36,033 bases of DNA from a virus, in the IMG/VR virus record IMGVR_UViG_3300045988_125363, positions 1 through 36,033 of that record. One strand, 5' to 3'. The position numbers and the translations under genes are program-made. The notes under the pieces were generated by a model that worked only from the letters and a program-made list of their open reading frames with translations, ran no database searches and was not told the origin of the DNA. This document shows, in pieces, positions 3,512-35,605 of the stretch (within the stretch, counting starts at the first letter, position 1; every line of letters begins with the position of its first letter).

Positions 3512-4804
3512 TTACACTTTGCTCCTTATCTGCTCTTTTAGCTTCAGCGATTCACGATACTGTTCCGCTGGAGCAAGCTCCACAAACTCCACCGAGCGAT
3601 CATAGTTTTCCTTCACGACTTTCTTTATTTCGTCCAGCGTGACGTTGAAGAACTCCCGACGCTGGTTAACAAAGTTCAGCTTACGGTCGGCGAAAGCGTT
3701 ATGCAATGCTGCTTCCAACCGAGGTGCATCATCCGAGAAGATCATAGCATGGACATCAAAGTTGAACGGAACGGACGCATCTCCAAGCTCATCCACGCGA
3801 TCCTGCGGGTCAAGGCGGCGAGTCATGCCGATTTTATACACGTTTTCGCCAAAAGCGCCAATATTGGAGATAACATAAACGTACCCTGCCCGCTGATTTG
3901 CTTCTCGATAGTCAACATCTTTGAACTCTTTGTCGATTCTATCCAGCTGTGCCTCAAGCTCTGCTTTCTTTTCCTCAATTGCCGTGCGATCGGTTTCAGA
4001 AGCAGTTTCAAGCTGGGCGATAATACGCTGTAATGCATTCTGATAATGCTGCTGCTCTTTTTCCAACTTTTTACGTTCTTCCTCAATCTCTTTAGCCAGT
4101 TTTGCTTCTTCCCGCATTCTAGCACGGGCTTCTTTCTGCTCCTCTTTTTCTTGCTGTTTTTTCTGAGCATATTCAAATGCAAGGTGCAGCTCTTCGATTT
4201 TGAGCTGATAATACTGCGGCACAATCCCGACACTCATGATTGCTCCAAGCTTTGAGATAGCATCGCGAGAAGAAGTAATCCGCTTTTCGCTGGCCGCAAT
4301 ATTATTATATTTGACGTGTTCTATTACATCATCGCATTCGGAGTTGAACGCCCGGAGAAGTAGTTTCTGCATATCCGCAACCATCTTGTTTCCTTTGGCC
4401 GCATTACCATTTACAGTCCAGCTGGAACTTCCAGTAACAGCGGTTTTGTTTTTTACCATATTCTTTTGCTTTGCACGAATCTCCAGCAGGTGGGCCTTAT
4501 ATTCGTCGGAGTTCATAAATGAATATCGCGGCGTATAGATTCCAAAACTCTGCATGAGGACGGTTTCTTCCGTTTCAACTATTTCGCTCTTGGTCTTCTG
4601 CAAGTCTGCAATAGCGTTGTTTAATTCGTCTTGCCGTTGCTTCAAATGTGTTTCAACCAACGATAATTCCGCTTTGCTCTCCTCGATTTCTTGATTGATT
4701 TTCTCTAATGTCCGGCTCTCCGAGGGCATAGAATCCCTTAACCGCTGCAATTCTTCATTCAGACGATCGATTTCTTCTTTTTCTTTTTTACCAAACAATG
4801 ACAT
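3512..4804 (-). CDS. DUF4041-like + T5orf172/Mug113 (GIY-YIG-like) domain protein, candidate anti-phage nuclease (430 aa)
   Basis: Coiled-coil N-terminus. Central FGIYTPRYSF...KLLLRAFNSECD...YYQLKIEELHLAFEY block. Charged coil. C-terminal GYVYVISN...VYKIGMTRRLDPQDRVDEL...LHNAFADRKLN...REFF. GGGAGGAA RBS. 35-40% GC in two hand-counted lines. Confidence 0.8.
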   Translation of the reverse strand: MSLFGKKEKEEIDRLNEELQRLRDSMPSESRTLEKINQEIEESKAELSLVETHLKQRQDELNNAIADLQKTKSEIVETEETVLMQSFGIYTPRYSFMNSDEYKAHLLEIRAKQKNMVKNKTAVTGSSSWTVNGNAAKGNKMVADMQKLLLRAFNSECDDVIEHVKYNNIAASEKRITSSRDAISKLGAIMSVGIVPQYYQLKIEELHLAFEYAQKKQQEKEEQKEARARMREEAKLAKEIEEERKKLEKEQQHYQNALQRIIAQLETASETDRTAIEEKKAELEAQLDRIDKEFKDVDYREANQRAGYVYVISNIGAFGENVYKIGMTRRLDPQDRVDELGDASVPFNFDVHAMIFSDDAPRLEAALHNAFADRKLNFVNQRREFFNVTLDEIKKVVKENYDRSVEFVELAPAEQYRESLKLKEQIRSKV

Positions 4805-4869: not shown

Positions 4870-5217
4870 CTACTTTTTTCCGTTCTCTAGTACAGCCAAA
4901 GCTGCCGCTCTAGCTGCGGCTCTGGCTTCTGGCGACGCTTCTCTATATGCATTCTCTACATCCGGCCACTCGTAACCGAGCTCACTTTTCAAAGTGGGCT
5001 CTTTTTTTGTGCCCATGAGCTCCTCAACGGGGATCCCGAGCACTTCTGAAATTTTTGCCCACCGGCGACGTGTGGGACTGGCTCTTCCTTTTAGCCAATC
5101 ACTCACATTACCGGTAGACGCACCGATTTTGTCCGCAAATTCTTTTTGAGACATGTCAAGCTTATCAAGCGTCTCAAAAAGCTTAGGACAACGGCATTCT
5201 TCTGGAATATTTGCCAT
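4870..5217 (-). CDS. XRE/Cro-C1-type HTH regulator (115 aa)
   Basis: MSQKEFADKIGASTGNVSDWLKGRASP HTH. AAGGTAAGGTGA RBS. Divergent from the 5218..5603 regulatory region. Confidence 0.85.
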   Translation of the reverse strand: MANIPEECRCPKLFETLDKLDMSQKEFADKIGASTGNVSDWLKGRASPTRRRWAKISEVLGIPVEELMGTKKEPTLKSELGYEWPDVENAYREASPEARAAARAAALAVLENGKK

Positions 5218-30363: not shown

Positions 30364-31167
30364 ATGAATGCATTTTTCGAGTTTATCTCCAAGCTGCTGG
30401 CGGCCCTCTCCCACGCTGCCGGAGACAAGGCAGAGGAGCCGGACGCCCCCGCTCCTGAAAAAGTGTCCACAGTGGACACCGTGCCCGGCTGGACGGGTGA
30501 GCCTCCCTACCGCTATCTCGACGTGAGCCGCTATCAGGGCAAAATCACCCTCGACGGCTGGCGCAAGGTCAAAGCGGCTGGCTACAAGGGGGCCATGCTC
30601 AAGACGGTATCCACCAACCGCAAGCTTTCCAAGCGGGCAGACGGCCTGTACATCGACCCCACCTTTGAGACCAACTACCGCAACGCCCAGGCTGCCGGGC
30701 TGGACGTGGGCGTCTATTACTACACCTACGCCACCAGCGAGGCTATGGCCGATGCAGAGCTTGCCCTTGTGCGGAAAGCGGTACGCGGAAAAGAGCTCAC
30801 CATGCCCCTCGCGGTGGACGTGGAGGAAAACAGCATTAAGCAGCTGTCCACCCTCGACCTCACAAACCTTACCGCCTACGCGCTGGAACAGGTGGAGAAA
30901 ATGGGCTTTTACGCCCAGCTGTACACCTACACCCACTACTCCAACACGGAGCTGGACATGGGCCGCCTTGCAAACCGCTGGGACGTCTGGCTTGCTGACT
31001 ACACGGGCAAAACTCCCGCCGTCGGCTACCACTACAACGCCCACCAGCACACCAGCAAGGGCCGCGTGCCTGGCATCTCCGGCAACGTTGACCTCAACGT
31101 GACCACCGTCAACTACCCGAAAATCATCCGCAAGAAGGGTCTGACCCGTCTTCGGGAGGGCAAATGA
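30364..31167 (+). CDS. Endolysin, GH25 muramidase with a ~45-aa N-terminal extension
   Basis: YLDVSRYQGKI...KAAGYKGAMLK...DPTFETNYRNAQAAGLDVGVYYYTYA...AVDVEE GH25 motifs. Confidence 0.9.
   Translation: MNAFFEFISKLLAALSHAAGDKAEEPDAPAPEKVSTVDTVPGWTGEPPYRYLDVSRYQGKITLDGWRKVKAAGYKGAMLKTVSTNRKLSKRADGLYIDPTFETNYRNAQAAGLDVGVYYYTYATSEAMADAELALVRKAVRGKELTMPLAVDVEENSIKQLSTLDLTNLTAYALEQVEKMGFYAQLYTYTHYSNTELDMGRLANRWDVWLADYTGKTPAVGYHYNAHQHTSKGRVPGISGNVDLNVTTVNYPKIIRKKGLTRLREGK
30459..30479 (+). repeat. 21-nt element AAAAGTGTCCACAGTGGACAC, copy 3 (inside the endolysin N-terminal extension)
   Basis: Seen directly. Encodes ...EKVSTVDT... Confidence 0.9.
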
Positions 31168-31553
31168 CCGAAAAAGAAGCTTTGCTGTGGGTGGTTGGCA
31201 TCCTGGGCAGCCTGTGCGCTGCGGCCATCACCATCGACAAGGTGCTGGAAATCATCCACAAGTACATCAAGAAGGCGCAGGAGCCGGACAACGTGCAGAA
31301 CAAGCGGCTGGATGAGCTGGACAAGCGCATCGGCACCTTAGAGCAAGGGCAGCTCCAACACACACAGGCCCTTGCCCGCGACCTGCGCCGCTTTGACGAA
31401 ATCGACGAGGTGAGTCGTCTTACCCTCAACGGGGTACGCAACCTTTTGGACGCGCAGCTGTCCGGCAACAATCGCGAGGGGATGCAAAAGAGCCGCACCG
31501 ACATCGACAACTATCTTTTGAAAGGAGTCACCAATCATGGAAGCAATCAGTAA
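31164..31553 (+). CDS. Membrane-anchored coiled-coil protein, holin-associated / XhlA-like candidate (129 aa)
   Basis: GGGAGGG RBS. One N-terminal TM (LLWVVGILGSLCAAAITI), then a coiled coil. Confidence 0.5.
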   Translation: MTEKEALLWVVGILGSLCAAAITIDKVLEIIHKYIKKAQEPDNVQNKRLDELDKRIGTLEQGQLQHTQALARDLRRFDEIDEVSRLTLNGVRNLLDAQLSGNNREGMQKSRTDIDNYLLKGVTNHGSNQ

Positions 31554-31875
31554 CCTTTTGACCGCACTTCCTGCCCCTGTGGCCCTCGTGCTCATGCTGG
31601 GCGGCTTTATCTTTTATGCTCTGGGCTGCATCCGGCTGGGCTATGGTGCCGCTGTCAAGGGCACCGTCCTTGACCTGATCGAGCAGGCAGAGCATGAGAT
31701 TCAAGGCACCAAGAGAGGCGCAGAGCGCAAGGCGTGGGTGGCGCAAATGCTCCGCATGGCCCTCAACGCCAGCAAGTGGGGCAGATTCATTTCGTGGGCC
31801 ATCACCGATGAGACCATCGGCACCATTATCCAGTTTTTCTTTGACCGCATGAAAGCGGCGCTGGAAAAGAAGTAA
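31537..31875 (+). CDS. Holin candidate (LL-H-like pattern), 112 aa
   Basis: AAAGGAG RBS. N-terminal TM (LPAPVALVLMLGGFIFYALGCI) and a charged C-terminal region. Confidence 0.55.
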   Translation: MEAISNLLTALPAPVALVLMLGGFIFYALGCIRLGYGAAVKGTVLDLIEQAEHEIQGTKRGAERKAWVAQMLRMALNASKWGRFISWAITDETIGTIIQFFFDRMKAALEKK

Positions 31876-31885
31876 GGAGGATATC

Positions 31886-32122
31886 ATGGCAAGCACTACA
31901 TACGAGCATTTTGCTAACGTCAACAAAATGTACGCCGCACAAAGACGTTTTCGTGACTTTACGAAAACATTCTGCGATTTTGTTAAGGTCAACAAAATCG
32001 ACCATCTCGGTAACGTCACCGTAATGGTGCGCAACGCCGGACAGCTGCCGCAGCCTTTCTGGCTCGGTGCTACCTGTGGCGGCGGCTCGCGTAGTGCTAC
32101 CCGCTGCGCTGCAAGGACTTGA
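31886..32122 (+). CDS. Hypothetical protein (78 aa)
   Basis: Strong AAGGAGGA RBS. Its 3' end overlaps the next ORF by 56 nt. Confidence 0.4.
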   Translation: MASTTYEHFANVNKMYAAQRRFRDFTKTFCDFVKVNKIDHLGNVTVMVRNAGQLPQPFWLGATCGGGSRSATRCAART

Positions 32123-32297
32123 CCGACAGCAGATGACAGCCGCTATCAAAAGCGCACCGCTTGGGAGGGTAGACCGTAAGATAGCCTTACTGCGGTACGT
32201 TGAGCGGCTCCCGCTGCCGGACATTGCAGCACAGGTCAACTACTGCCGTCAGTCGGTTTCGGCCCGGCTGGACGGCATCGACAAATTTTTTGAGTAA
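32067..32297 (+). CDS. Small sigma-region-4-like HTH protein
   Basis: RKIALLRYVERLPLPDIAAQVNYCRQSVSARLDGI. The start is uncertain: GTG 32067, or ATG 32133 ten nt after the upstream stop. Confidence 0.5.
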   Translation: MLPVAAARVVLPAALQGLDRQQMTAAIKSAPLGRVDRKIALLRYVERLPLPDIAAQVNYCRQSVSARLDGIDKFFE

Positions 32298-32300
32298 AGT

Positions 32301-32346
32301 AAACCCCCGGTGTTCCGTTTGGAGCATCGGGGGTTTTGCTTTTTAT
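32301..32346 (+). terminator. Intrinsic terminator ending the rightward late/lysis transcription
   Basis: aaacccccg (32301..32309) / cgggggttt (32328..32336), then TGCTTTTTAT. Confidence 0.7.
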
Positions 32347-32364
32347 GTGGATTTGTGGTATACT
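32336..32364 (+). promoter_or_regulatory. Promoter candidate TTGCTT-17 nt-TATACT (TGg extended -10)
   Basis: TTGCTT at 32336..32341 and TATACT at 32359..32364. Confidence 0.45.
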
Positions 32365-32394
32365 ATCCATGCACCTCCAAGAGGTGTCTTTCAC

Positions 32395-32445
32395 AAAAAA
32401 TCCCCCGGGCGATGTTCGCGCATCACCTGGGGGATTTTTTGTTTT
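32395..32445. terminator. Bidirectional terminator AAAAAATCCCCC-N22-GGGGGATTTTTT
   Basis: 12-bp arms at 32395..32406 and 32429..32440. It sits just beyond the stop (32449) of the minus-strand 58-aa gene and about 60 nt after the plus-strand promoter. Confidence 0.7.
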
Positions 32446-32448
32446 ATC

Positions 32449-32625
32449 TTAGATTTCCACGCCAAGCTTCTTGGATGCTGCATACACGACGGATTCAAAG
32501 CTTTCCCCGTCTGCTGCGTCCCACTCGGCGGTCATATCAGCGGCCTCGCACAGCTCTGCGCACAAGTCGTTGTCCCACTCATTGGAGTTGCGGATATCGG
32601 CAGCGATTTCATAAGCGTTTCTCAT
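32449..32625 (-). CDS. Small strongly acidic protein (58 aa)
   Basis: ORF-track 32449..32640 trimmed to ATG 32625 behind GGAGGT. 14 D/E against 4 K/R. MRNAYEIAADIRNSNEWDNDLCAELCEAADMTAEWDAADGESFESVVYAASKKLGVEI. Confidence 0.6.
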   Translation of the reverse strand: MRNAYEIAADIRNSNEWDNDLCAELCEAADMTAEWDAADGESFESVVYAASKKLGVEI

Positions 32626-32649
32626 AATGGTTACCTCCATGTGTTTGTA

Positions 32650-32729
32650 TGGTGTCTTTCACTGTCTCTATTATACGCTCATTGAGCGTATAAGTCAAGG
32701 ATTTTACAAAAATTTTATGCTCAATGAAC
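32650..32729 (-). promoter_or_regulatory. Promoter/operator module A: TTGACT-17 nt-TATAAT with palindrome GCTCA-T-TGAGC in the spacer and a second half-degenerate copy 42 bp upstream
   Basis: Plus-strand coordinates: -10 at 32670..32675, -35 at 32693..32698, O1 at 32677..32687, O2 at 32719..32729, 5'UTR motif GTGAAAGACACC at 32651..32662. 69/80 positions are identical to module B. Confidence 0.75.
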
Positions 32730-32737
32730 AACTTTTT

Positions 32738-33061
32738 TCACAGCAGTTTATAATGCTCGGCCAGCAAAAAGCGGACATACACAGGGCATTCTCTTGTACA
32801 GCCACACCAGCCTTGGAGTGTGCGGTAAGGAACCCCGGCCCGTTTGGCAAAAGCGGTCTTGGACAGGCCAGAGCGGGCCACTAAATCCCGCATAGGCAGG
32901 TGAGCCACATCCCAAATGGCGGACAGTCTTTCCTTCTCGGCGTCCAGATCGGCGCACCCGTCAGCATCGTCCGGGACACTGAGGTTGACATTGTTGAGGA
33001 AAGCCTCACGAGAGATTGCAGGGTTGGTTGCCATAACAAAAAGCTCAGCAGTAGTATACAT
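32738..33061 (-). CDS. HTH (XRE-like, C-terminal) regulator, Aca-like/antitoxin-like candidate (107 aa)
   Basis: ORF-track 32738..33085 trimmed to ATG 33061 behind AAAGGAG. MRDLVARSGLSKTAFAKRAGVPYRTLQGWCGCTRECPVYVRFLL. Confidence 0.7.
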   Translation of the reverse strand: MYTTAELFVMATNPAISREAFLNNVNLSVPDDADGCADLDAEKERLSAIWDVAHLPMRDLVARSGLSKTAFAKRAGVPYRTLQGWCGCTRECPVYVRFLLAEHYKLL

Positions 33062-33081
33062 TTTTCTTCTCCTTTCAAGCG

Positions 33082-33435
33082 TCAAACACGGTCTTTTGCA
33101 GAGAGCGTCACTTTGTGGATGAATCCATCTGGGAATCTCTCACCACTCCAGAGAGAGCCAAGAACGCCGTCGCCGCCGTTGTCGATGGGGTACTCATAAA
33201 AGGCAGTCATACCAAAGCGGTCATTAGAGCGGCGCAGCTTCACGATACGGTCTGGAGCAAGCGCGATCTCGCGGGTGAGTTTGCCGTTTTTGTCCAGTGC
33301 GTCCTCGCACACCCACTGGAGCGCCGAGACAAACTCATCCATGGTGATGGTAGAGTGAGCGGCCCAGTCCTTAAAAATGCAACTGTCGCCTGCAAGAACG
33401 ATCTTCTTTTTGATTTCAAAGCTGTTCATCGTCAT
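33082..33435 (-). CDS. Hypothetical protein (117 aa), first gene of the module-B operon
   Basis: ORF-track 33082..33468 trimmed to ATG 33435 behind GGAGGAAA. No motif recognised. Confidence 0.6.
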   Translation of the reverse strand: MTMNSFEIKKKIVLAGDSCIFKDWAAHSTITMDEFVSALQWVCEDALDKNGKLTREIALAPDRIVKLRRSNDRFGMTAFYEYPIDNGGDGVLGSLWSGERFPDGFIHKVTLSAKDRV

Positions 33436-33455
33436 TTTCGTTTCCTCCATTTGCG

Positions 33456-33535
33456 TGGTGTCTTTCACTGTCTATATTATACGCTCATTGAGCATAAAAG
33501 TCAAGACTTTTTGCAAAATTTTGTGTTCAATGAGC
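33456..33535 (-). promoter_or_regulatory. Promoter/operator module B (same architecture as module A)
   Basis: -10 at 33476..33481, -35 at 33499..33504 (TTGACT-17-TATAAT on the minus strand), O1 GCTCATTGAGC at 33483..33493, O2 GTTCAATGAGC at 33525..33535. Confidence 0.75.
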
Positions 33536-33548
33536 GTAAAAAGAAAAA

Positions 33549-33590
33549 GTGCTCATGCGGCTTTGTGCCGTGTGGGCGCTTTTTCTTTTT
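33549..33590 (+). terminator. Plus-strand-specific terminator-like hairpin
   Basis: GUGCUCAUGCGG-N7-CCGUGUGGGCGC, 12 bp including 4 G-U pairs, flanked by AAAAA and TTTTTCTTTTT. An 11-bp tandem repeat CGTTCGTTTGA x2 follows at 33593..33614. Confidence 0.4.
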
Positions 33591-33664
33591 GGCGTTCGTT
33601 TGACGTTCGTTTGACGCACGGATTCTGGAAAGCTGGTAAGATGGAGCCGCAAGGAGGGATTTAT

Positions 33665-34120
33665 ATGCCGTATTTGTATGATCCTTACACAGGCAAGCCT
33701 TTACCGCCACCGCCCCGGGAATTTGGCTGGATGCAATCCGCCGCTGCTGCACCAACGGCGGCGCAGGCCCAGCCGGAACAAAAAGACCCGTGGATCATGG
33801 TGCCCACCATCGCCGACGTGGACAAAGTGAGCGTGGACCGGGGCGAAACAAAATGGATCATGGTGCAGTCCGACCAGATTTTCGCCGTTAAGACCGCAAA
33901 CGCCATGGGCTACGCTCCGGCGGAGTATTACCGCTTTGAACAAATCGACCCGGCCATGCTGAGCCCCGCTGCATCTGTCCCCGGCGGGCAGCAGCTCACA
34001 CGGGCAGACGTGGAACAAATCGTGGACGCCAAAGCCCAGGAGCTGATAGGCCAGTATCTGGCCATGAAGCCCACAGCCGCACAGCCGACCCCCAAGACGA
34101 AGAAGGAGGCCACACAATGA
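33665..34120 (+). CDS. Hypothetical protein (151 aa)
   Basis: ORF-track 33377..34120 trimmed to ATG 33665 behind AAGGAGGG. Pro-rich N-terminus. Confidence 0.6.
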   Translation: MPYLYDPYTGKPLPPPPREFGWMQSAAAAPTAAQAQPEQKDPWIMVPTIADVDKVSVDRGETKWIMVQSDQIFAVKTANAMGYAPAEYYRFEQIDPAMLSPAASVPGGQQLTRADVEQIVDAKAQELIGQYLAMKPTAAQPTPKTKKEATQ

Positions 34121-34452
34121 GCAATCCTCTTGCAAACAGAATCGGCCCTCAGAGAGCCCCGCAGGCGTCTCAGGGCACGCTCATGAGCCAGCTGCCCGGC
34201 ATCATGAAGCAGGCCCGGCAGGTTATCGCCGTCATCAACGCGGCGCAGAACCCGCAGAAGGCCCTTATGGACTACTGCGACAAGTCCGGCGTTTTTGAGG
34301 GATACACGGGCAGCCGTGACCCCGAAAGCATGGCCAGGTGGCTGGCCGAAAAGAACGGCGTCCCTCTGGACGACGTCATCACGATGCTCCACGGCCCCGG
34401 TGCACAGGGGCTTGGAAATAAGCTTACAAAATTTTTGAAAGGTGGTTTTTGA
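34117..34452 (+). CDS. Hypothetical protein (111 aa)
   Basis: GAAGGAGG RBS and an ATGA overlap. Confidence 0.6.
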   Translation: MSNPLANRIGPQRAPQASQGTLMSQLPGIMKQARQVIAVINAAQNPQKALMDYCDKSGVFEGYTGSRDPESMARWLAEKNGVPLDDVITMLHGPGAQGLGNKLTKFLKGGF

Positions 34453-34454
34453 CA

Positions 34455-35072
34455 ATGACCGATGAGACTACGAGCGGCATGGGCGCTGGTTTCTGGATCT
34501 TCGCGCTGGTTGTCCTGGTGCTGATCGTCGTGATGTGTATGCGCGGCGGTCTGGGCTTTGGCAGCGGCATGAGCGTGCCTCCTAACGTGGCTACTGCTGG
34601 CGACGTGCAGCGCTCCACGGACTTTGCCGCGCTGGAGCGGCAGAACAACGAGGGCGTGGCCGCGACCCGGCAGGGCGTCTATGACGTCGCTGCCGCCGTG
34701 AAGGACGGCAATTATGACATCCTCGGCGAGCTGCGCGACCTGGAAAGTGCCTCCAACGCTGGCTTTGCACAGCAGCAGATCTGCTGCTGTGAGACCAACC
34801 GCAATATCGACTCTGTCCGCTATGACATGAGCAACTTTGCGGCGGCGATCAAGGAGAACCAGACGGCAGGCATCCAGAAGGTGCTGGAGCAGCTGGCAGC
34901 CAATCGCTACGGCGATCTGGAGCGGGCATATACTCAGCAGTATATGCAGAACGCCATCCAGCAGGCTGTTTGCGGCATCCCTAAGGCATCGCCCTTTGCC
35001 TACCAGCTGGCCCCCGCATGGGGCCCGGCTCCTAACCCCGGCTGCGGTGCCTATTGGGGCAACGCGGCTTAA
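34455..35072 (+). CDS. Single-pass membrane protein with a Cys cluster (205 aa)
   Basis: TM GAGFWIFALVVLVLIVVMCM. QQICCCETNRNIDSVRYDMSNF. The ORF-track TTG 34449 was replaced by ATG 34455. Confidence 0.6.
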   Translation: MTDETTSGMGAGFWIFALVVLVLIVVMCMRGGLGFGSGMSVPPNVATAGDVQRSTDFAALERQNNEGVAATRQGVYDVAAAVKDGNYDILGELRDLESASNAGFAQQQICCCETNRNIDSVRYDMSNFAAAIKENQTAGIQKVLEQLAANRYGDLERAYTQQYMQNAIQQAVCGIPKASPFAYQLAPAWGPAPNPGCGAYWGNAA

Positions 35073-35104
35073 ATCCCCCACATCTTCGCTTTAACAGCGC
35101 ACGA

Positions 35105-35140
35105 CCCCCACGGCAAGCGCTGTGGGGGCATTTATTTTAA
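35105..35140 (+). terminator. Terminator-like hairpin cccccac-N10-gtggggg followed by CATTTATTTTA
   Basis: Arms at 35105..35111 and 35122..35128. Confidence 0.5.
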
Positions 35141-35155
35141 GGAGATGATTCTTTT

Positions 35156-35605
35156 ATGACTTCCTGCATGAAAAATCCGCACTATAAGAGTGCCGTCGAG
35201 TCTTACAACACCGCCACGCAGGCGCTGACCACTACCCCGGCCCCTCTGGGCCTGACTGGCACCGTCCTCACCAATACGGGCGTCTCCCTCAGTCCTGAAC
35301 AGGCAGCAGTAAAAATCAACAACGCCGGGCTCTATCAGGCTTGGGCAAACGTCCAGGCTCTGGCGACCGCTGCGGGCGATATCGTCATCGGCCTGTATCT
35401 GGACGGTGTGCTGCTGCCCGAAACTCGGCGAACCGTGACCGCTGCTGCCAATGCTACCGTGTCCATCACCACCGATATGCTGCGCAGCATCCCCTGCGAT
35501 TGCAACTCCCACACCCTCCAGCTTTATGGGTGGGTCGTCGGCGCCGCTGCCGCAAGCGTGACCTTTGCTCAGATGGCCACTGTGAAGCAGGCGGGGAGGG
35601 CGTAA
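35156..35605 (+). CDS. Possible C1q/TNF-like (BclA C-terminal-domain-like) beta-sandwich protein (149 aa)
   Basis: The pattern INNAGLYQAWANVQALATAAGDIVIGLYLDGVLLPETRRTV...HTLQLYG resembles BclA-CTD-type jelly rolls (from memory). Confidence 0.35.
   Translation: MTSCMKNPHYKSAVESYNTATQALTTTPAPLGLTGTVLTNTGVSLSPEQAAVKINNAGLYQAWANVQALATAAGDIVIGLYLDGVLLPETRRTVTAAANATVSITTDMLRSIPCDCNSHTLQLYGWVVGAAAASVTFAQMATVKQAGRA

Follow-up and report, generated by a model that had tools for sequence, protein, structure and literature searches.

Two adjacent operons of a Faecalibacterium prophage are probably controlled by one Aca10-like repressor and carry candidate anti-defence genes

Introduction

The regulator Aca10 (WP_074980464.1, structure 7XI5) is encoded in the acrIC7-acrIC6-aca10 operon of Pseudomonas citronellolis. 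Its minimal binding site, 5'-ATACGCTCATTGAGCGTAT-3', has been defined by electrophoretic mobility shift assay and overlaps the promoter of this operon (PMC9410881). In other Aca families, there is precedent for one Aca that regulates neighbouring operons, and motifs that recur in the 5' untranslated region (UTR) and between genes are known from other Aca operons (PMC13551039). Here, we describe a cluster of three small genes on the minus strand of a 36,033-nt stretch of viral DNA (IMG/VR record IMGVR_UViG_3300045988_125363, positions 1 to 36,033; hereafter the window), in which an operator identical to the Aca10 site is located within a promoter. Promoter PB of module B precedes a 117-aa protein (B1) and, after a gap of 20 nt, a 107-aa protein with a C-terminal helix-turn-helix (HTH) domain, and promoter PA of module A precedes a 58-aa protein (A58) with 14 D/E and 4 K/R residues; these open reading frames (ORFs) are as described in an initial annotation, which had been made from the sequence alone.

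The initial annotation had read the cluster as an acr/aca-like locus, in which a strong promoter with operators drives genes for small proteins that are followed by the gene of an HTH autorepressor. This architecture is largely supported by the identity of the operator with that of Aca10, the preservation of contact residues, the covariation of residue 84 of the regulator with the operator, and the role of the HTH gene as an anchor among shuffled cargo. As regards the proposed anti-defence function, the Aca-like control finds support, and known Acr or anti-restriction cargo was not found in the searches described below. The best explanation, to which we assign a probability of about 0.68, is a pair of adjacent operons of a Faecalibacterium prophage which are controlled by a single Aca10-like repressor and whose cargo consists of candidate anti-defence proteins. 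That the regulator binds and represses, the timing of expression and a function of the cargo against host defence are what we infer, the last because no sequence match links the cargo to any known Acr, defence protein or toxin.

Two promoter modules with palindromic operators

A repeat finder detects modules A and B as an 84-nt repeat with 86% identity (32644-32727 and 33450-33533), and a recount of the two 80-bp segments that had been aligned by hand (32650..32729 and 33456..33535) likewise gave 69 of 80 identical positions. The proposed TTGACT-17 nt-TATAAT promoter is present on the minus strand of both modules with 11 of 12 consensus matches each; the region contains five promoter-like sites, compared with 1.7 expected from shuffles. 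In both promoters, a palindrome of 17 to 23 bp occupies the spacer between the -35 and -10 hexamers. It had been reported with a length of 11 bp, which is too short: the palindrome of module A, TTATACGCTCA-T-TGAGCGTATAA, is a perfect repeat of 11+1+11 nt (32671-32693), and that of module B has one mismatch. The second, half-degenerate copy was correctly placed 42 bp upstream, with centres at 32682 and 32724 in module A and at 33488 and 33530 in module B, and relatives carry a perfect palindrome of the cognate class at the position of the distal site of module B. Sequences matching GCTCAWTGAGC with at most one mismatch occur six times in the window, compared with 0.87 expected, and four of the six are operator sites of the modules. 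In both leaders, the box GTGAAAGACACC is followed by GGAGG and then ATG, in agreement with the ribosome-binding sites assigned previously. The box is indeed shared by the two leaders, but its copy number in the window is three rather than two, compared with 0.10 expected.

The operator and the regulator are linked to Aca10

The proximal operator of module A (32673-32691) is identical to the Aca10 site at 19 of 19 positions, and module B differs from it by one mismatch. This stretch ends three bases into the -10 hexamer, a register that is also found in the Aca10 promoter. When the profile of the regulator family was compared with the PDB, the best prokaryotic match was Aca10, with an E value of 0.92 for the full-length protein and of 0.12 for the HTH domain. 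A PDB sequence search with the single HTH sequence was discarded, as it returned spurious protein-A repeats only. In the profile alignment to 7XI5, residues Q22, R34, Q37, Q38 and R44 of Aca10 align with position 68, R80, Q83, position 84 and R90 of the window regulator. R80, Q83 and R90 are invariant in the family; position 68 is a nearly invariant Q and is K in the window. Residue 84 is aligned with a DNA-reading residue of Aca10, so that the residue that covaries with the operator (see below) lies at a known base-reading position.

A scan of viral contigs for the 19-mer yielded 25 stretches, in which it occupies the promoter position seen in the window and which include 21 new loci with a G+C content of 0.38-0.70. 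In twelve 19-mer loci outside the gut-phage module type, the site is located between a -35-like TTG element and a -10, and 8 of these 12 encode an HTH protein with an R/K-T-x-Q-x-W helix downstream. Locus L126 encodes Aca10 itself (7XI5, E=8.5e-40), L134 a 54-aa minimal version of the window HTH, and L132 and L138 full-length relatives with the N-terminal extension. The window regulator and Aca10 are connected by a chain of similarities, which leads from the window protein to that of L134 (4e-8), from there to that of L129 (7e-4) and from L129 to Aca10 (~0.02).

One residue of the recognition helix tracks the operator class

The recognition helix of the regulator reads R80-T-L-Q83-G84-W85 and is followed by R90. 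The C-terminal XRE-type HTH that had been assigned by eye is supported as an Aca10-like HTH; the match of the window protein to Pfam HTH_3 is weak (E=0.094), with 13.2 bits at a gathering threshold of 23, and the distant family members P0294 and P0283 reach 24.5 and 23.0 bits, respectively. The family comprises 468 clusters at 90% identity, and the wider family includes 995 related clusters at 50% identity (E<=1e-3). Many of the 995 clusters have a length of ~115 aa and the same two-domain layout with the conserved N-terminal extension, and only some of them reach Pfam HTH_3. Four residues, C36, C86, C92 and H103, are invariant in the Faecalibacterium-phage clade, with C86 and C92 flanking R90, and some of them are lost in distant relatives; a metal or redox site is possible.

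The operators of the relatives fall into three classes, GCTCA-A-TGAGC, CGCA-A-TGCG and ACTCA-T-TGGG, and the distal site follows the same class as the proximal operator. Residue 84 of the regulator is G with the GCTCA class, D with the CGCA class and N with the ACTCA class, with zero exceptions in 79 loci (55 distinct proteins), and it is the sole alignment column in these loci whose mutual information equals the class entropy. On a protein tree calculated with residues 77-93 masked, the class has switched at least seven times, and the nearest neighbour of the window protein belongs to a different operator class. The operator is located 5' of the gene and is separated from the codon of residue 84, close to the 3' end, by variable cargo and by the N-terminal domain; simple linkage therefore explains the covariation poorly. 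Judged from this covariation, the operator is the predicted target of the HTH regulator.

The regulator is the anchor of exchangeable cargo

Relatives of the locus were found via the -10 plus leader pattern TATAATANAGACAGTGAAAG, which is present in at least 119 IMG/VR contigs. The same promoter/operator module is present in ~90 of them. A homolog of the 107-aa HTH protein was detected by tblastn in 84 prophage or viral loci, in all of which it lies downstream of the module, at a distance of 85-940 bp and always on the strand of the promoter. By the same method, the 117-aa protein was found in only 5 of the 84 loci and the 58-aa protein in 28 loci. Walking along the operons revealed more than ten unrelated families of first genes, which are mostly small, and several of which, including the commonest ones, are acidic. 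Four of the cargo families are each combined with two or three of the operator classes. The regulator is thus the constant anchor, around which the cargo is shuffled.

Twin promoters are found in five loci, i.e., the window and four others; in every one of them, the operator class of both promoters is that of the resident regulator. In the window, the leader and gene of A58 resemble those of CGCA-class relatives (L014, L048 and L061), and the operator in front of A58 is of the GCTCA class.

The leader is also found outside of this arrangement. In fifteen viral contigs of ~13-14 kb, the -10 plus leader TATAATATAGACAGTGAAAGGG forms part of long inverted terminal repeats and is thus present in opposite orientation at either end; these contigs resemble small linear phages in which the same promoter/leader core is used without an Aca-type operator. 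Other loci (L043, L078, L023/L041/L054/L104 and L028/L083/L109/L110) share the same -10 plus AGACAGTGAAAG leader and have quite different upstream elements, including other palindromes, e.g., TATTAGTACTAATA, as well as TTCATAA motifs in several copies. Many gut-phage promoters seem to share the leader core as a portable unit.

Coding status and properties of the cargo proteins

In comparison with relatives (synonymous divergence dS of 0.8-1.8), the ratios of nonsynonymous to synonymous substitutions (dN/dS) of the three ORFs are 0.07-0.16, which shows that they are real genes under purifying selection. Homologs of B1 form 101 clusters, all of which lack an annotation. Its AlphaFold2 (AF2) model has a predicted local distance difference test score (pLDDT) of 91 and consists of three helices and a beta-sheet; Foldseek searches of this model against the PDB and BFVD returned nothing better than E=0.24. 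B1 has no match in Pfam, NCBIfam or PADLOC, and its sole PHROG match is unannotated (phrog_35298, E=6.9e-06). In L001 (MT839879), the B1 homolog (3709-3850, minus strand) is internally deleted, with the first ~17 and the last ~28 codons recognisable, and the HTH gene is intact, which represents cargo decay next to a conserved regulator.

A58 directly follows the promoter in 28 relatives, which include all three operator classes. Its AF2 model has a pLDDT of 93, Foldseek found no fold match better than E=0.24 in the PDB, Pfam and PHROGs gave nothing informative, and searches of NCBIfam and the defence-protein library PADLOC gave no match. Neither the family libraries nor Foldseek, which the initial annotation had proposed, gave an informative match for B1 or A58.

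Among the other cargo families, F8 has a weak match to Phage_Gp111. F3 is a Zn-ribbon/AP2-like protein that follows the HTH gene in 41 loci, and its C-terminus matches the AP2-like part of PHROGs named 'HNH endonuclease'. F33 is an orphan N6/N4 DNA methylase, which is found only in L108 among the ~90 loci; in this locus, the HTH gene directly follows the promoter, and the methylase follows the HTH gene.

Leader structure and internal terminators

RNA folding gave no sign of structure in the leaders behind the two promoters (z between -0.5 and +0.75), and an Aca2-style hairpin in the 5' UTR is therefore not supported for them. The lack of structure fits efficient translation. In ~50 relatives, the first cargo gene and the regulator gene are separated by an intrinsic terminator, which is followed directly by the same box and then a hairpin of 5-7 bp. 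This hairpin contains GGAGG and shows the compensatory variants GTACC/GGTAC, CGCACC/GGTGCG and ACACCTC/GAGGTGT, as compared by single folds. The window has a box and a small hairpin of this kind behind the A58 terminator (Table 1). By eye, ~3 differences from the leader of L014 were counted in the 50 positions between the -10 and the ATG of A58, compared with a dS of ~0.8 in the adjacent coding sequence. We infer that the third copy of the box is the leader of a regulator gene, which was carried along when the A58 cassette inserted downstream of the resident regulator.

An internal terminator in front of the regulator gene would favour the cargo over the repressor. It could further be speculated that the operator/residue-84 classes, which are spread over Faecalibacterium phages of otherwise mosaic make-up, represent orthogonal 'immunity groups' that are kept diverse by selection, and that the GTGAAAGAC box and hairpin provide a second, RNA-level control; we regard this two-part idea as tentative and somewhat doubtful. 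If it were true, the Aca-like repressor of a resident prophage would be unable to silence the anti-defence burst of an incoming phage of another immunity group, and the GTGAAAGAC box, together with the compensatorily varying hairpin after the internal terminator, would set the ratio of cargo to repressor.

Genomic context and host

The window is a prophage with an integrase gene (363-1802), a CI-like repressor gene (4870-5217) and early and late genes on the plus strand, which are followed by a GH25 endolysin gene (30364-31167). The cluster is antisense to the late genes, as claimed. Its assignment to the slot between the lysis genes and attP holds for the position downstream of lysis and is otherwise only approximate, since at least four further plus-strand ORFs follow the cluster (33668-35605) and the integrase lies ~4.8 kb beyond the HTH gene in two relatives. 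These ORFs encode proteins of 150, 111, 207 and 149 aa, the first three of which have homologs in a few relatives, and an informative family match was found for none of the four. The 207-aa protein matches the unannotated phrog_16490 and has an apparent N-terminal hydrophobic segment. A protein of 430 aa with DUF4041 and T5orf172 domains is encoded on the minus strand between the integrase and the CI-like repressor (3512-4804) and matches PD-Lambda-1 of PADLOC (E=6.9e-163); a defence gene and the putative anti-defence cluster are thus combined in one prophage.

Convergent with the cluster is a sigma-region-4-like gene (32067-32297, plus strand), which is syntenic in 70 related loci and whose protein has tblastn matches in 70 loci. 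The stretch 31886-32300 on the plus strand contains two overlapping reading frames upstream of or overlapping this ORF, both of which are also present in L001, and a 15-nt direct repeat, GTGCTACCTGTGGCG / GTGCTACCCGCTGCG; a frameshift or a longer gene may underlie this gene structure. On the other side, an inverted repeat with 24-nt arms and T/A tracts on both sides (33538-33590) is located between module B and the divergent plus-strand gene at 33668. The repeat resembles a bidirectional terminator or an insulator, which would shield the cluster from antisense read-through. An Rfam search over 31500-33750 gave only sub-threshold, terminator-like chance matches, and no tRNA genes were found. 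The only match to a cellular genome is a metagenome-assembled genome of Faecalibacterium, which is in line with the G+C content of the window of 56%; in GenBank phages, three unannotated contigs from human faeces are the only matches.

Table 1. Coordinates of the cluster and its control elements in the window (MFE, minimum free energy; pI, isoelectric point; O1 and O2, proximal and distal operator).
Feature	Position	Strand	Remarks
Terminator of the sigma-region-4-like gene	32301..32336	+	bounds the cluster
Orphan third leader box and small hairpin	32372..32394	-	GTGAAAGACACC at 32383-32394, hairpin CACCTC-TTG-GAGGTG; without promoter, after the A58 terminator
Bidirectional intrinsic terminator	32393..32442		ends the A58 transcript; 22-nt arms, 91% complementary, flanking T/A tracts
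Cargo gene A58	32449..32625	-	58 aa, pI ~4, predicted four-helix protein; dN/dS 0.09-0.10
Leader box, copy 2	32651..32662	-	GTGAAAGACACC
-10 hexamer of PA	32670..32675	-	TATAAT
O1 of module A	32673..32691		ATACGCTCATTGAGCGTAT; perfect palindrome, equals minimal Aca10 binding site
-35 hexamer of PA	32693..32698	-	TTGACT
O2 of module A	32716..32732	-	centre 32724; half-degenerate
Regulator gene	32738..33061	-	107 aa; ~50-aa N-terminal extension and C-terminal XRE/Aca10-like HTH; dN/dS 0.10-0.16
Cargo gene B1	33082..33435	-	117 aa, orphan fold; dN/dS 0.07
Leader box, copy 1	33457..33468	-	GTGAAAGACACC; start of the unstructured leader ending in GGAGG; MFE -1.7 kcal/mol, z=+0.75
-10 hexamer of PB	33476..33481	-	TATAAT
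O1 of module B	33480..33496	-	TATGCTCA-A-TGAGCGTA; between -35 and -10, overlaps the first -10 bases
-35 hexamer of PB	33499..33504	-	TTGACT; 17-nt spacer, 11/12 consensus
O2 of module B	33522..33538	-	TACGCTCATTGAACACA, centre 33530; half-degenerate, 42 bp from O1 of module B

Discussion

As soon as the phage DNA becomes transcribable, host RNA polymerase with sigma-A would initiate at the near-consensus promoters PB and PA, and the short unstructured leaders with their strong ribosome-binding sites would give rise to a burst of the 117-aa protein, the 107-aa HTH protein and the 58-aa acidic protein. The regulator, presumably as a dimer, is predicted to bind to the spacer palindrome of 17-19 bp in both promoters, and the weaker site four helical turns upstream probably supports this binding. 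The bound regulator would occlude RNA polymerase and thereby shut down both operons to a low level. The small proteins are interchangeable cargo and, judged from the architecture and by analogy with known Aca-controlled loci, most likely inhibitors of host defence.

Several observations weigh against this model. Taken alone, the direct sequence similarity between the regulator and Aca10 falls short of significance (E=0.12-0.92), and the regulator is 107 aa long with an extra N-terminal domain, compared with 65 aa for Aca10. Operator and regulator are physically linked, and part of the covariation could therefore result from shared ancestry. No known Acr, anti-restriction or other anti-defence family was found in Pfam and PHROGs among the ten cargo families scanned. 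A co-encoded Acr homolog was likewise not detected in Pfam, PHROGs or NCBIfam, and the models of B1 and A58 have no counterpart in the PDB; the usual definition of an Aca requires a neighbouring validated Acr, and no such Acr was found at this locus.

The same autorepressed XRE/Aca10-like circuit could instead control moron or lysogenic-conversion genes, such as those for superinfection exclusion, host-physiology modifiers or factors of inter-phage competition. This would agree with the lack of a match between any cargo family and a known anti-defence protein, with the location in the classical moron slot downstream of lysis and with the large Zn-ribbon/AP2-like protein F3 that is encoded behind the regulator in 41 loci; furthermore, aca-like genes that lack a known acr gene are widespread (PMC9410906). 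However, the operator and the recognition helix correspond to those of a regulator of AcrIC6/7, a DNA methylase is among the cargo (L108), and small, often acidic and rapidly exchanged genes behind a strong self-limiting promoter are the very signature that led to the discovery of Acrs and other anti-defence genes. Moron cargo is considered unlikely. The toxin-antitoxin system that the initial annotation had offered as an alternative, a type II pair with a 117-aa toxin upstream as in HigB/HigA and the 107-aa HTH protein as antitoxin and autorepressor, fares worse. The order of a small protein before an XRE HTH does resemble HigBA, HigA2 is among the structural neighbours of Aca10, and one source names a homolog YiaG. 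Yet the partner upstream of the HTH varies, with B1 in 5 of 84 loci and more than ten unrelated families in its place; the HTH gene directly follows the promoter in L108, B1 is truncated beside an intact HTH gene in L001, its confident model (pLDDT 91) matches no toxin fold, with no PDB or BFVD match at E<0.2, and the second promoter drives a lone acidic protein. Such a system is very unlikely.

It is highly improbable that the HTH protein is the controller (C) protein of a restriction-modification (R-M) system, or a remnant of one, which times R-M genes from paired operators. The operators do recall C-boxes and an N6/N4 methylase follows the HTH gene in L108, but the window contains neither a methylase nor an endonuclease, the methylase is confined to one of ~90 loci and a recognisable restriction enzyme was found in none. 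The annotation 'Regulatory protein-modification, helix-turn-helix', which homologs carry in the nr database and which would also point to a C protein, was presumably copied from the title of a PDB entry. There is an equally slim chance that the duplicated module is a passive recombination scar with only one promoter or neither of them active or regulated. The orphan third leader box (32383-32394) does show that pieces of cassettes have been moved and left behind, and the distal sites of the window are degenerate. Both promoters nevertheless match the consensus at 11 of 12 positions and have intact proximal palindromes, A58 is preceded by an operator of the resident GCTCA class despite the resemblance of its leader and gene to CGCA-class relatives, and four other loci have the twin arrangement with matching classes.

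The pair of Aca10-like operons is of interest beyond this prophage. It links an abundant, unannotated family of gut-phage regulators to a characterised anti-CRISPR regulator through an operator that is shared by distant bacterial phyla, and the one-residue specificity code (G/D/N) is directly testable. More than ten unrelated families of small proteins, including the acidic 58-aa protein and the 117-aa protein with an orphan fold, are flagged as candidate anti-defence genes, and a literature search on Faecalibacterium, a key human gut commensal, found no paper on an anti-CRISPR or anti-defence protein. In addition, the promoter-operator module represents a compact, portable and self-limiting expression switch.

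Comparison with known systems

Antitoxins of the HigA/MqsA type and the C proteins of R-M systems resemble the window regulator in that they combine an XRE HTH and a W-x-G-x-R-x-P tail with autorepression from a palindrome; they differ in that the window has no conserved toxin or R-M partner and its neighbours are freely exchanged. In Listeria prophages, the HTH protein AcrIIA1 autorepresses an acr locus that lies behind the lysin gene. Both this locus and that of the window are located in a Firmicutes prophage behind the lysis genes, and in AcrIIA1, as proposed for the window regulator, an HTH protein represses a strong acr promoter via a promoter palindrome; AcrIIA1, which has no known sequence relationship to the window regulator, has an N-terminal HTH and a C-terminal Acr domain, whereas the HTH of the window protein is C-terminal.

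The closest system is Aca10. The 19-bp operator, its register relative to the -10 hexamer and the R-T-x-Q-x-W...R recognition segment are common to both, and the acrIC7-acrIC6-aca10 operon likewise has more than one inverted repeat in its promoter and a regulator gene downstream of small genes, for which self-repression is expected (PMC9410881). In contrast, Aca10 is a single-domain protein of 65 aa from a proteobacterial host, and the window regulator has 107 aa with an N-terminal extension of ~50 aa and comes from a phage of a gut commensal of the Clostridia. The Aca10 operon encodes AcrIC6/7, and neither these nor any other known Acr was found at the window locus. Unlike Aca10, the window family appears to have three operator specificities, which are set by one residue, and in most of its members, the window itself not included, the regulator gene is set off from the first cargo gene by an intrinsic terminator and a conserved box. 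Aca1, Aca2, Aca4 and Aca11-14 are comparable to the window in that a single regulator gene is accompanied by an operator that is repeated before a neighbouring operon, and in that a conserved motif is found repeatedly, both in the 5' UTR and in intergenic positions (PMC13551039, PMC12282945). For Aca1 and Aca2, this motif forms a structured RNA hairpin to which the regulator binds, whereas the promoter-proximal leaders of the window are unstructured.

Aca-controlled operons and the control of several operons by one Aca are already known. What is new is a large HTH family of gut phages that is tied to Aca10 via an identical operator shared across phyla, its two-domain regulator, the three specificity classes that go with a single residue, and the element composed of a terminator and a box, together with several uncharacterised families of cargo genes in phages of Faecalibacterium.

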